Counted from the stretch's first letter, positions 1,977-4,717 are shown. The stretch: DNA of 5,819 bases from Promethearchaeota archaeon (GCA_048939465.1 JBHLPL010000117.1:1-5819); one strand, 5' to 3'. Program-made: numbers and translations. The notes: generated by a model from the letters alone, not told the origin.

Positions 1977-1991
1977 TTTTTTAGATTTTTT
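1977..1991 (+). terminator. Probable oligo-T terminator of the mevalonate cluster
   Basis: Two T6 tracts (TTTTTTAGA TTTTTT) just after the DUF35 stop codon. Confidence 0.4.
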
Positions 1992-2000
1992 AGATAATTC

Positions 2001-2006
2001 TTTAAA
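2001..2006 (+). promoter_or_regulatory. Candidate TATA box for the HTH-ATP-cone-NrdD-like gene
   Basis: TTTAAA about 45-50 nt upstream of ATG 2051, in an AT-rich intergenic region. Confidence 0.45.
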
Positions 2007-2014
2007 CTTCTTTT

Positions 2015-2036
2015 GACTATCATTACTATGATAGTC
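2015..2036. promoter_or_regulatory. Perfect 9-4-9 inverted repeat, candidate operator
   Basis: GACTATCAT-tact-ATGATAGTC lies between the candidate TATA box and the start codon, covering the expected transcription start. Confidence 0.6.
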
Positions 2037-2050
2037 GGGTTGAGATCGTT

Positions 2051-4348
2051 ATGCCTAAATCAAGAAAGAGTATTTCTGAAGAGGAACAGACCTCCACGAT
2101 TCTCTCTGCAATTTCTAGCTCGCTGCGATCTGAAATCCTCAAACTTCTAAGTCGTGAAACGTCCCTATCGTTCACGGAGATTATGCAGGGTATCGATATT
2201 GATCCTCGTAATGCGGGTAGATTTGGCTATCACCTACGTGAGCTAAAACGGGCAAATCTCATAACGGGCGGACCGGCAACGGGCTATTCTCTGACACCCA
2301 TAGGAGAAAAAGTAGTAGACTTCATATGGACACTTGAAGATATAAGCAGGAAGTATTTGGATGAAATATTCGTCAGAACTTCAAGAATCTCGATGGAGCA
2401 CTTCGATCGAGGCAAAATAACAGAATCATTAGTAAGAGAAGCCAGTGTTCCGAAAACCCTTGCAGAGAAGATAGCGAAGGAAGCAGAAGATAGACTAATG
2501 AAACTGAAAGTACAGTATCTAACTTCTTCCTTGATTCGTGAATTCGTGAATGCTATCCTCCTCGAAAAGGGTTTTGAAGAATACCGTCATGCACTAACCC
2601 GTCTTGGTCTCCCTGTTTATGATATCACTCAGCTTATCAAGAATCCGTCATTTAAAGCAACCGACTCAAGTCCTGAAATTGTGCATAAATTGGCAGGAGA
2701 TGCTGTATTAGAGCAATACCTCTTTATGAAGATACTCCCTAGAAAGGTCGCAGATGCGCATCTTTCTGGAGCTATTCATATACCGCATGCCAGCTACTGG
2801 GTCTTAAAGCCAAACGAAATTTGCCATGACCTGCATACTTTGCTTCAACGAAATTTCTTTTCGGCAAAGCCTCCTAAAACGTTAAGAGATACCCTTGGTC
2901 AGATATCCATGATTATTGGAAATACACGAGCAAACGTTATTAGCGGGCAGGTTTTTGATCATTTTAACGTCTTTTTGGCACCATATGCGAGGGCAAAGGA
3001 CATAAAAGAAACAAAGAAAGCACTGAGAGTCTTCTTTGCTGAACTGAACAATACCTTCTTCAGTCAAGAGAAACGTCCGAACAGCACTATTCTCCTTGAA
3101 TTCACAATCCCCTCTTACCTCAGAGATACTCCGGCAATTGGACCGAACAATAGGATAGTTGGTACATATGGGGAGTATGCTGATGAAGCCAGTTTCATAT
3201 TAAACGCAATACTGGATATTTTGATGAAAGGCGATATGCTGGGGAGACCTTTCTTCAATCCAAACATCGTACTAAGAATAAGACCTGAAACGAGGGAAAC
3301 CTCTTTACAACTTCTACTGAAATCTCATAAGTTGGCCTCGAAATGGGGAACTCCCTACTTCATAAACATGCGTCCAGATTGGCAGACTCTGAATGCTTGT
3401 TACACCGGGAACCTCACACGTTTAGAATCTTCGTGGAAGAGTAATTGGGATCTGGGTGTCAATCGCACTGGAAATCTTGATTGGGTTGCAGTAAATCTCC
3501 CTCAAGTTGCTATTGAATCGAAGGGAGATGAGGAATCGTTGTTCGGTTTACTTGACGAGTATTTGAACATAATTTACGAAACTCTTACAGTAAAGCATAA
3601 AACAATTTATGAAAGGCTTCGAAAAGATCATCTACTTCCGCTACTCATGCATAATATTGATGGTGAACCTTACTACCGTTTAGAAAACGCAACTCATACC
3701 GTCGCTTTCTTGGGGTTAGATGAGGCCGTTAGAAAGTGCACCGGCAGCTCTATACATGAGGGGAGAGATGCTCTAGATTTTGCCAAGACTATACTAAATC
3801 ACCTGGCCGATTTTGCAGAGAACTCCACTAAAATCTCTGGTTTAAGATGGAACACAATGCAGATGCCCGCAAGTTCTGTTGCACATAGACTTGCGAAACT
3901 AGATGCAGAGCATTTCGGATCCGATAATTCAATTGCACAGAATGCTGGAGCCACACCCTTCTACAGCACCAGCAACATACTCGCGTCCGCCTCAGTACCG
4001 TTCGAAAAAAGAGTGGAACTGGAATCACAAATCCATCCTATGTTGCTGGGTGGGCACATGCTTAGCATTCCTTTATCGGATTCTCGTATTACATCAAAAA
4101 GATTGTTGAAAGCTACCGAGAGAATCTGCGATTCCGATGTTGGTTTCTTTGCCTATAGCAGACGTTTGACTTTCTGCAGCAGGTGTTTAAGCACATATCA
4201 GGGCGTCCAGCAGAAGTGCTCCTCTTGTGATCTGTCTGGCACAAATCTGAAAAGTTTTGACCGAGCGATTGGCACCTACGGACAGTTAGATAAACTAGAA
4301 TCCAGCCTGAAACTCGCAATTATTGGTCAGAATAGATATTCTCTCTAA
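2051..4348 (+). CDS. nrdD: Winged-HTH (ArsR-like) + ATP-cone + class III ribonucleotide reductase (NrdD)-like fusion, catalytic motifs degenerate
   Basis: aa ~15-95: wHTH (SSLRSEILKLLS...SFTEIM...GRFGYHLRELKRANLI...YSLTPIG). aa ~105-185: ATP-cone (VRTSRISMEHFDRGKITESL...LIREFVNAILLEKG). The body has NrdD hallmarks SGQVFDHFNVFLAPY, GRPFFNPN, WGTPYFIN, RTGNLDWVAVNLP, LGGH and a C-terminal CSRC-x10-CSSC Zn site. No NrdG activase gene is in the window. Confidence 0.85.
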   Translation: MPKSRKSISEEEQTSTILSAISSSLRSEILKLLSRETSLSFTEIMQGIDIDPRNAGRFGYHLRELKRANLITGGPATGYSLTPIGEKVVDFIWTLEDISRKYLDEIFVRTSRISMEHFDRGKITESLVREASVPKTLAEKIAKEAEDRLMKLKVQYLTSSLIREFVNAILLEKGFEEYRHALTRLGLPVYDITQLIKNPSFKATDSSPEIVHKLAGDAVLEQYLFMKILPRKVADAHLSGAIHIPHASYWVLKPNEICHDLHTLLQRNFFSAKPPKTLRDTLGQISMIIGNTRANVISGQVFDHFNVFLAPYARAKDIKETKKALRVFFAELNNTFFSQEKRPNSTILLEFTIPSYLRDTPAIGPNNRIVGTYGEYADEASFILNAILDILMKGDMLGRPFFNPNIVLRIRPETRETSLQLLLKSHKLASKWGTPYFINMRPDWQTLNACYTGNLTRLESSWKSNWDLGVNRTGNLDWVAVNLPQVAIESKGDEESLFGLLDEYLNIIYETLTVKHKTIYERLRKDHLLPLLMHNIDGEPYYRLENATHTVAFLGLDEAVRKCTGSSIHEGRDALDFAKTILNHLADFAENSTKISGLRWNTMQMPASSVAHRLAKLDAEHFGSDNSIAQNAGATPFYSTSNILASASVPFEKRVELESQIHPMLLGGHMLSIPLSDSRITSKRLLKATERICDSDVGFFAYSRRLTFCSRCLSTYQGVQQKCSSCDLSGTNLKSFDRAIGTYGQLDKLESSLKLAIIGQNRYSL

Positions 4349-4375: not shown

Positions 4376-4417
4376 TGGTAGCGGGGCCGGATTTATCCGG
4401 ACTGAAAAGAGACCGCT
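4376..4417 (-). repeat. Intronless, degenerate minihelix-like copy of the tRNA-iMet ends (AGCGG...CCCCGCTACCA)
   Basis: The - strand reads AGCGG TCTCTTTTCAGT CCGGA TAAA TCCGG CC CCGCT A CCA. The last 11 nt are identical to the spliced tRNA 3' end and the first 5 nt to its 5' end. It starts 1 nt after the tRNA CCA. Confidence 0.5.
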
Positions 4418-4423
4418 ATGGTA

Positions 4424-4456
4424 TTCCCCCGGGATGACGGTGTGTCTTGCTCCCGA
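4424..4456 (-). other. tRNA intron 6, position 71/72 (33 nt, acceptor stem)
   Basis: CCCC-GC|T-CGGGA...TCCCG-GGGG-AA|T: 4-bp central helix, two 3-nt bulges and a 5-bp intron helix. Removal restores U72, A73 and CCA. Confidence 0.8.
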
Positions 4457-4468
4457 GCGGGGGATGGA

Positions 4469-4498
4469 ATTTCATGGGTGCGGGCCTGCCGCCCCGGA
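4469..4498 (-). other. tRNA intron 5, position 59/60 (30 nt, T-loop)
   Basis: GATGG-TTCA-AA|T...TGAA-AT|T-CCATC: the T-stem is the outer helix and TTCA/TGAA the central helix. Removal restores TTCAAAT. Confidence 0.88.
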
Positions 4499-4512
4499 TT
4501 TGAACCATCGAT

Positions 4513-4535
4513 CTCCCGCAACTCCTCGGAGTTGA
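4513..4535 (-). other. tRNA intron 4, position 45/46 (23 nt, variable loop)
   Basis: CCCG-AG|T-CAACTC cgag GAGTTG-CGGG-AG|A: perfect central and intron helices. Removal restores AGATC. Confidence 0.88.
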
Positions 4536-4543
4536 CTCGGGGT

Positions 4544-4559
4544 ATCTCAGAGCCCCTCA
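4544..4559 (-). other. tRNA intron 3, canonical position 37/38 (16 nt)
   Basis: GGGG-CTCA-TA|T-GAG ggg CTC-TGAG-AT|A-CCCC: a strict BHB. Confidence 0.93.
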
Positions 4560-4576
4560 TATGAGCCCCGCGGGAT

Positions 4577-4589
4577 TTCAGGCCACGGT
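4577..4589 (-). other. tRNA intron 2, position 20a/21 (13 nt, D-loop)
   Basis: CAGG-AG|A-CCGTGG-CCTG-AA|A: 4-bp central helix and two purine 3-nt bulges; flanking helices relaxed. Confidence 0.78.
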
Positions 4590-4596
4590 CTCCTGA

Positions 4597-4625
4597 TTCG
4601 GCTCAAACGCCAATATGCGTCTGGC
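4597..4625 (-). other. tRNA intron 1, best-fit position 15/16 (29 nt, D-loop)
   Basis: TG-GGGT-AG|G-C CAGACGC atattg GCGTTTG A-GCCG-AA|T-CA: central helix 3 of 4 paired, 2-bp outer helix, 7-bp intron helix in register. Shifted junctions (16/17, 17/17a) give no central helix. Confidence 0.7.
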
Positions 4626-4717
4626 CTACCCCACCCCGCTTTCCAGTGTTACATATTACATTAATTGAGAGACAGTGTGAGCCTCTAAGGACATTTCCTG
4701 CCCTGAAATTCTTTTGC

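Follow-up and report, generated by a model that had tools for sequence, protein, structure and literature searches.

An NrdD-derived pseudo-enzyme as a putative NrdR-like regulator of ribonucleotide reductase genes in Asgard archaea and Thermoproteota

The DNA stretch JBHLPL010000117.1:1-5819 of a Promethearchaeota archaeon (assembly GCA_048939465.1; 5,819 nucleotides, hereafter “the window”) contains the gene for a protein, P0001, in which a winged helix-turn-helix (wHTH) domain and an ATP-cone are fused to the barrel of NrdD, the class III ribonucleotide reductase (RNR). Sequence comparisons suggest that P0001 is a pseudo-enzyme, which would likely bind DNA, sense ATP and dATP, and control the transcription of RNR genes in a manner similar to NrdR. 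An RNR-derived analogue of NrdR had been proposed in a preliminary description of the window, and is supported by the loss of Cys residues in proteins that keep the HTH, by a separate class II RNR (NrdJ) in the same genome, by recurrent RNR genes next to family members, and by an operator-like palindrome at RNR promoters (Table 1). A broader scenario is somewhat favored by the same evidence: a whole class III RNR might have been converted early in Asgard/Thermoproteota history into a dedicated dATP/ATP-sensing RNR regulator, which would act in trans on class II and class III genes through paired 16-bp operator boxes shared between phyla, thereby filling the role of NrdR; in Bathyarchaeia it would preferentially act on NrdJs without an ATP-cone, with transcriptional control replacing allosteric control.

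Table 1. Coordinates of features in the window and at the nrdJ promoter (contig C78 of the same genome); aa, amino acids.
Feature	Position	Strand	Basis or remark
Gene for the wHTH-ATP-cone-pseudo-NrdD protein P0001, 765 aa	2051..4348	+	Intact open reading frame (ORF)
ArsR-like wHTH (DUF7347), aa 17-92	2099..2326	+	Pfam E 6e-9
VRTS-type ATP-cone, aa 105-190	2363..2620	+	Pfam aa 107-179, E 5e-6
Lost NxN substrate flap, ENAN to KATD, aa 202-205	2654..2665	+	Asn at 203 in 2/121
Glu256 replacing first catalytic Cys (RPNC)	2816..2818	+	Cys in 0/121 homologues
Finger loop aa 450-458, Asn454 (AAC, 3410-3412) in place of thiyl-radical Cys	3398..3424	+	Alignment to YMGCRTRL NrdDs
Zinc site CxxC-x10-CxxC (C709, C712, C723, C726), retained	4175..4228	+	Kept in 119/121
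Degenerate glycyl-radical loop RAIGTY, aa 738-743	4262..4279	+	RITGY to RAIGT; Gly741 kept, Tyr to Thr742
Double box upstream of nrdJ, CTCTA-N6-TTGAG-N6-GTTGA-N6-TTAAA	C78:8463-8500		Best-scoring promoter site
Weak in-register double-box match around putative TATA (TTTAAA, 2001-2006)	1980..2017	.	Candidate autoregulatory site
22-bp palindrome without mismatch (arms of 9 bp, spacer of 4 bp)	2015..2036	.	Over probable start site

Architecture and active site of P0001

The RNR body of P0001 is readily recognized: the NRDD domain (PF13597) spans residues 205-745 (E 2e-79) with the 10-stranded α/β barrel present, and the top Foldseek matches of an AF2 model (mean pLDDT 89.2, pTM 0.79) all belong to class III RNRs, among them 8p2s with E 8e-29. 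The score against the NrdD model TIGR02487 is 285.8 bits, i.e., under its cut-off of 326.35, and the nearest named homologue (87% identity) comes from a Promethearchaeota (Asgard) archaeon. The ATP-cone exceeds the cut-off of PF03477 (27.5 vs. 25.8 bits), and alignment revealed VRT[SG]-type cones in intact NrdDs as well. At the N-terminus, the wHTH passes the cut-off of DUF7347 (36.5 vs. 27.6 bits) and stays below those of HTH_5 (20.5 vs. 22) and HTH_20 (24.7 vs. 27). With ArsR/SmtB-like proteins (PF01022, PF12840, DUF7347) P0001 shares the N-terminal wHTH fold by weak profile matches; it differs from them by scores below the ArsR cut-offs, by the lack of an obvious metal-sensing motif, and by the fusion to a 660-residue RNR body. 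Neither Cys nor any other obvious metal-sensing site was found in residues 1-100 (non-Cys ligands were judged by eye), the first Cys of the protein being C258. NrdR models did not match P0001, whose N-terminus is a Cys-free wHTH and not a Zn-ribbon with RRRR.

Motif losses were scored against active YMGCRTRL-type (methanogen-type) NrdDs, of which the nearest relative found, L313, is 38.7% identical to P0001, and were counted in a family of 121 proteins (P0001 and 120 homologues). At the finger-loop position 454, Cys occurs in 1/121 proteins, and at the adjacent position 453 (Gly453 in P0001) in none. The second active-site Cys (RPxC; Cys79 of T4) is absent as well, with E256 in its place. The NxN, HxHD and TPAE motifs are substrate contacts in NrdD (PMC11226230); in P0001, the NxN flap is lost, HIHD reads HIPH and TPAES reads MPASS (Ser608), together with a change from YTNS to YSTS and the deletion of GLKVDGTGDHTS, the specificity-site hairpin of active NrdDs. 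In the glycyl-radical loop, Gly741 is kept by 54/121 family members, a Gly-Tyr pair by 0/121, and RxxG[YF] is found in no C-terminus. Every substitution listed by the preliminary description (finger-loop Cys to Asn454, PxC Cys to Glu256, Glu to Ser608, YSTS, HIPHA, and the displaced glycyl Tyr) was recovered in the alignment to active NrdDs, as was, with Pfam, the retention of ATP-cone, barrel scaffold and Zn site behind an ArsR-like wHTH. The changes in the NxN flap and the specificity-site hairpin come in addition to that list.

That P0001 is active as an atypical class III RNR, or as a radical enzyme of another kind, by means of a relocated Cys (Cys450 here, Cys456 in some Bathyarchaeia) is a most improbable alternative. 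The intact fold and Zn site, Gly741 in P0001, the names given to such proteins in databases, and a Cys at position 456 in 36/121 proteins are in line with activity. However, neither Cys is conserved, and both were ruled out as substitute catalytic residues on this ground: Cys450, which had been considered as a possible stand-in and which aligns with the Asn of NYMG in active NrdDs, is incidental (5/121), and residues 448-460 are free of Cys in 70/121 proteins. Moreover, Gly741 is never followed by Tyr, the HxHD, NxN and TPAES contacts are gone, and no NrdG was found in the genome. The preliminary description had further pointed to the NrdD of Thermotoga maritima, which is active though the tip of its finger loop has no Cys. 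This enzyme has no pre-positioned Cys, yet requires the cysteines of its SCCR motif, as both C329A and C330A are inactive (PMC4493059). Because these residues are needed there, while the family has no Cys at the corresponding place, T. maritima NrdD provides no precedent for activity of P0001, and the caveat does not apply. Judging from its sequence, P0001 is almost certainly a catalytically dead enzyme, for which radical chemistry would be impossible.

One intact RNR is encoded in the genome, a class II NrdJ (C78:8628-12074) that lies on another contig than the P0001 gene and has the SACFV, NPC..GEQ and ESCNL motifs. In the assembly, which is 91% complete, no second NrdD was found, and both NrdG models (TIGR02491 and TIGR02495) stayed below their cut-offs genome-wide. 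The lack of an adjoining nrdG noted previously thereby holds for the neighborhood of the P0001 gene as well as for the whole genome, and the proposed check for a separate intact RNR and NrdG returned the former and not the latter. By its annotation, the host genome would wrongly be counted as bearing a class III RNR, whereas it depends on the B12-dependent NrdJ. Two side observations concern the same genome: a LAGLIDADG intein sits inside the catalytic NPC-x-E motif of NrdJ, and there are four further ORFs with an ATP-cone (C66:10189-10395, C64:5746-5952, C53:7824-8024 and C38:9421-9612, in frames of 318, 108, 97 and 284 residues, respectively), two of which are apparently stand-alone.

On sequence grounds, the HTH and, most of all, the ATP-cone are the best-conserved parts of the family, and selection is concentrated there. 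The HTH motif G-[RK]-F-x-Y-H-L is invariant, with G56, F58, Y60 and H61 each present in 121/121 proteins, so that the suggested survey of 120 homologues found the HTH conserved jointly with the loss of Cys. Columns with more than 95% conservation (87 members) amount to 38/86 in the ATP-cone and 13/71 in the HTH, compared to about 9% in the barrel. Relative to the orthologue from the same genus, the numbers of synonymous/non-synonymous codon differences are as follows: HTH, 32/4; ATP-cone, 32/3; barrel, 151/78; glycyl tail, 17/16. By these measures the P0001 gene is not a decaying pseudogene, and its product is very probably a DNA-binding regulator.

In a tree of 74 proteins, the pseudo-NrdD family and divergent Asgard paralogues are split from 44 active NrdDs with an SH-aLRT support of 100 (a quick LG+G4 tree with the root not established, in which the branches of the divergent paralogues were flagged as long), which marks the family, on sequence grounds, as old and as a single group separate from every active NrdD. 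A recent tandem copy of a neighboring nrdD was rejected as the origin, since the family does not branch with its neighbors; tandem duplication is also disfavored because the family gene adjoins class II nrdJ genes as well. Instead, a wHTH was probably added onto an old duplicate of a methanogen-type NrdD.

A candidate operator at RNR promoters

De novo motif searches, run separately on nrdD promoters of Methanomethylicales (where the regulator gene is unlinked) and of Bathyarchaeia, yielded motifs in the same register. The unit consists of the 5-bp half-sites (A/C)TC(T/A)A and T(T/A)GA(T/G), placed 6 bp apart to form a 16-bp palindrome. Two such boxes, recognized as a unit in Asgard promoters, lie 22 bp apart with box 2 over the TFB-recognition element (BRE) and TATA, and the third half-site, which falls on the BRE, is well conserved in all three lineages. 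The two lineages predict each other: with the 95th percentile of 321 control promoters as the mark, 22/26 Methanomethylicales promoters lie above it under a Bathyarchaeia-trained model, and the other cross-prediction gives 14/29. A symmetrised 38-bp matrix trained on Thermoproteota only gave 9.1-22.7 bits in 6/11 gene-bearing Asgard genomes, and a maximum of 7.6 bits in 35 genomes without a detected family gene; the compared genomes are kin and not independent, so that p-values overstate. Among nrdD promoters, those adjoining the family gene reach a median of 9.8 bits vs. 1.3 in genomes without it, and for the highest-scoring apparent negative a contig-cut copy of the family gene was found upstream. 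A matrix built without Bathyarchaeia also finds the box at nrdJ promoters of Bathyarchaeia, with 16-21 bits in five genomes, one of which has the family gene unlinked. In Bathyarchaeia, all NrdJs that lack an ATP-cone (7/7) have an in-register site (5.5-20.6 bits). As another candidate owner of the box, NrdR was not found in 5 box-bearing genomes.

In the host genome, the site upstream of nrdJ scored best among 1.96 million positions when the host's family was left out of the matrix. Among 1,773 promoters, the nrdJ promoter ranked 1 after training on three lineages or on other Asgard genomes, 4 with Thermoproteota only and 13 with Methanomethylicales only; the symmetrised 38-mer form was chosen after the Asgard sites, including this one, had been seen, so that its rank was not obtained entirely blind. 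With 200 shuffled matrices, this promoter never came first, and the box is kept in the same register in a genome of the same genus. Together with the lineage comparisons, these matches argue with good confidence for RNR promoters as the targets of P0001. In this genome, where the family gene is unlinked to any RNR, nrdJ would be an in-trans target, picked out by an operator model that crosses phyla.

Several observations weigh against the proposed control of RNR genes by P0001, apart from the incomplete blindness of the rank. The lid of the ATP-cone is VRTS and lacks the canonical KRDG, and the neighbors of the gene in the window are mevalonate and not RNR genes. After training on Bathyarchaeia only, the nrdJ promoter ranked 70/1,773, and earlier models missed its site (2.3 bits with the 16-bp Bathyarchaeia-only matrix, which did not pick Asgard RNR promoters, and 2.5 bits with an unsymmetrised 32-mer). 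Scores are under 4 in 5/11 gene-bearing Asgard genomes, with G012 and G032 lacking an in-register site. Most ATP-cone-bearing NrdJs in gene-bearing Bathyarchaeia have no box, and a box (7.6-9.7) occurs without a detected gene in three Bathyarchaeia genomes and in G048. Finally, the AT-rich sequence of the box coincides in part with core promoter elements.

It is considered unlikely that the RNR box belongs to another factor and that P0001, as a nucleotide sensor, regulates different targets instead, be it pyrB/pyrI, the mevalonate operon, or its own gene alone via the 22-bp palindrome. This reading draws on the neighborhood of the family gene, with pyrB nearby in 33/91 loci and genes for thiolase/HMG-CoA synthase or reductase nearby in about 30, on the conservation of the 22-bp palindrome within the genus, and on the few genomes that have a box without a detected gene or, in some cases, the gene without a box. 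However, no box was found at pyrB promoters with the 16-bp model, the family gene has its own promoter and is convergent to pyrB, and its neighbors fit an old conserved gene block, in which genes for ATP synthase, NAC, PAN and TFE also recur. The box also follows the family gene onto unrelated nrdJ promoters. The palindrome itself keeps its arms in the same-genus genome G002, where spacer and flanks differ, and its geometry is unlike that of the RNR box; no other copy within 2 mismatches was found genome-wide, none at nrdJ, and none upstream of distant homologues. As a family operator it was therefore rejected, lacking a second genomic copy and conservation beyond the genus.

Control of RNR genes by P0001 might be accompanied by autoregulation via the double-box match at its own promoter, for which the sequence is suggestive only. 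This match is weaker than the one at nrdJ: it came out at rank 11, with ranks of 5-30/1,773 over multi-lineage or Asgard-trained 38-bp models, and was equaled by 13/200 shuffled models. As a family feature, autoregulation was left as weak: family gene promoters have a higher mean box score than control promoters, with 12-20/79 above the control 95th percentile and the site coinciding with TATA. As a separate observation, the palindrome RGAACATAWGTTCY has 23 copies in the genome (e.g., C2:5935, C23:10363, C78:15705, C139:19984 and 20304), most of them without the start of a long ORF within about 130 nt; another regulon or a small repeat element are candidate readings.

Predicted dimer and proposed mode of action

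P0001 is predicted to form a homodimer (residues 100-560) with a score of 0.67 vs. 0.00 for the best control, a run-to-run contact agreement of at least 86% and a pLDDT of at least 72. The same mark was attained by 20 of 30 homodimers of solved structure and by 1 of 23 monomers, and the prediction may partly reflect solved NrdD dimers already known to the predictor. The interface would be formed by invariant helices of the ATP-cone (interface residues 152-190) and by helix 205-231, so that the model places two ATP-cones at the dimer axis and brings the HTHs together beside them. In Prevotella copri NrdD, the ATP-cones likewise come together across the dimer, and their position changes between ATP and dATP (PMC11226230). 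The cone of P0001 quite likely senses ATP/dATP: one or the other nucleotide might change the HTH arrangement or the oligomeric state, and thereby set DNA binding, while barrel and Zn site would serve as a dimer scaffold. One dimer could occupy each 16-bp box, and two dimers on two boxes 22 bp apart would lie on the same face of the helix. The DNA-bound form, probably loaded with dATP, might then block TFB/TBP, because box 2 covers BRE/TATA, and repress RNR when dNTPs are plentiful.

Repression is fairly likely to be the mode of action. Activation by the same protein from the same boxes, in which box 1 upstream of the BRE would recruit TFB/TBP, or a nucleotide-dependent switch, is less probable. 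Archaeal activators such as Ptr2 bind just upstream of the BRE, and both here and in Bathyarchaeia this position is taken by box 1, which is stronger than the degenerate box 2 over TATA. On the other hand, the half-site on the BRE is well conserved in each lineage, and the functional analogue NrdR represses from boxes that overlap the polymerase site (PMC9110341).

It is also conceivable, if quite improbable, that the dead barrel acts on the protein level by forming a heterodimer with an active NrdD, which it would inhibit or scaffold, with DNA binding being secondary. The full barrel and dimer surface are kept, and co-location with nrdD is frequent. However, there is no active NrdD in this genome, yet the P0001 gene is under strong purifying selection; the family gene pairs with class II nrdJ as well, and the HTH recognition motif is invariant.

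Distribution, known relatives and neighboring elements

The family gene is single-copy in 64/91 Bathyarchaeia genomes; Methanosuratincola and Bathyarchaeum tardum, whose genomes are complete, carry it as well. In Methanomethylicales, a second, weaker NrdD-like match occurs in most of 31 genomes. Among Asgard archaea, the gene was found in 11/61 genomes, which represent several lineages; 6 others have a paralogue that is more eroded, and one closed genome of the same order as the host is without the gene. It lies directly upstream of nrdD in 29/80 loci, often with a glutaredoxin gene in between, and in 6 Bathyarchaeia genomes the gene that directly follows it is class II nrdJ. A block that recurs across Asgard and Thermoproteota has mevalonate genes and an HTH_3 protein upstream of the family gene and pyrB/pyrI, V-ATPase, NAC, PUA and PAN-like genes downstream.

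Two further groups of NrdD-like proteins were observed. The eroded paralogue (L174-L179; G050, G042, G013, G033, G023 and G057) occurs in one Asgard family and has about 635-670 residues with an HTH, an ATP-cone and a shortened barrel; nrdD promoters in these genomes reach box scores of 6.0-17.7 bits in very AT-rich DNA. L258 (G169:C24:152-1618) and similar proteins in G172, G134, G178 and G111, all Bathyarchaeia genomes without the regulator, are about 530-580 residues long, have neither HTH nor ATP-cone, and are apparently deficient in the Cys and the Gly loop.

Regulators that join an HTH to an enzyme and act on the pathway of that enzyme are already known; an RNR-derived one was not found described in the literature. 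NrtR, ThiR and Bacillus PurR are one-component regulators built from a pathway enzyme. P0001 differs from such enzyme-derived regulators in that its probable sensor is an allosteric module and not the former active site, and in that its scaffold is a radical enzyme. Archaeal RbkR resembles P0001 as an HTH fused to an enzyme-derived domain that controls the genes of its own pathway, and differs by keeping catalytic activity (PMC5397151). With NrdD (PF13597/TIGR02487; structures 8P23, 9D3X, 4COI and 1H78), P0001 shares the 10-stranded barrel, the VRT[SG] cone, the Zn site, the predicted dimer and 33-39% identity to the nearest active members; it differs by the missing catalytic Cys, Gly-Tyr loop, NxN/HxHD/TPAES contacts and specificity hairpin, by its N-terminal wHTH, by the absence of a detected NrdG partner and by its separate branch in the tree. 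NrdR likewise combines an ATP-cone sensor with DNA binding to paired 16-bp AT-rich palindromes over RNR promoters, and serves as one regulator for RNRs of different classes, as the P0001 family would, from its sequences (PMC9110341). Unlike P0001, with its wHTH and a whole RNR barrel in 765 residues, NrdR carries a Zn-ribbon with RRRR, recognizes another box sequence with boxes about three helical turns apart vs. two (22 bp) for the P0001 family, and has no homology to P0001 outside the cone.

NrdR is rare in archaea (PMC9110341), and no paper on the transcriptional control of RNR in these archaeal lineages was found. Literature searches, with subscription journals outside their coverage, returned no prior description of the pseudo-NrdD family, nor did term look-ups in a survey of RNR insertions and extensions and in one of archaeal fusions. 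With P0001 in the proposed role, RNR control in these archaea would have an identified protein, a short operator sequence and a gene to act on. Moreover, RNRs that lack an ATP-cone have been suggested to be regulated at the level of transcription (PMC4390871), an idea that the family offers a way to test. In Asgard, Bathyarchaeia and Methanomethylicia, many proteins entered in databases as “anaerobic ribonucleoside-triphosphate reductase” are not enzymes.

The P0001 gene is flanked by a cluster for HMG-CoA synthase, thiolase and DUF35 on one side and by a deoxyhypusine synthase gene on the other. The thiolase of this cluster (360-1514) has VEAADASG at the expected Cys position. A GC-rich non-coding element at 4376-4640 (minus strand) has no Rfam or ARAGORN match, and the RNase P and SRP RNAs are located elsewhere. 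It is 87.5% identical in a genome of the same genus, has partial matches in four genomes of the same order, and displays an initiator-tRNA-like 5' end, an anticodon loop with CAT and a loop that reads TTCAAAT.

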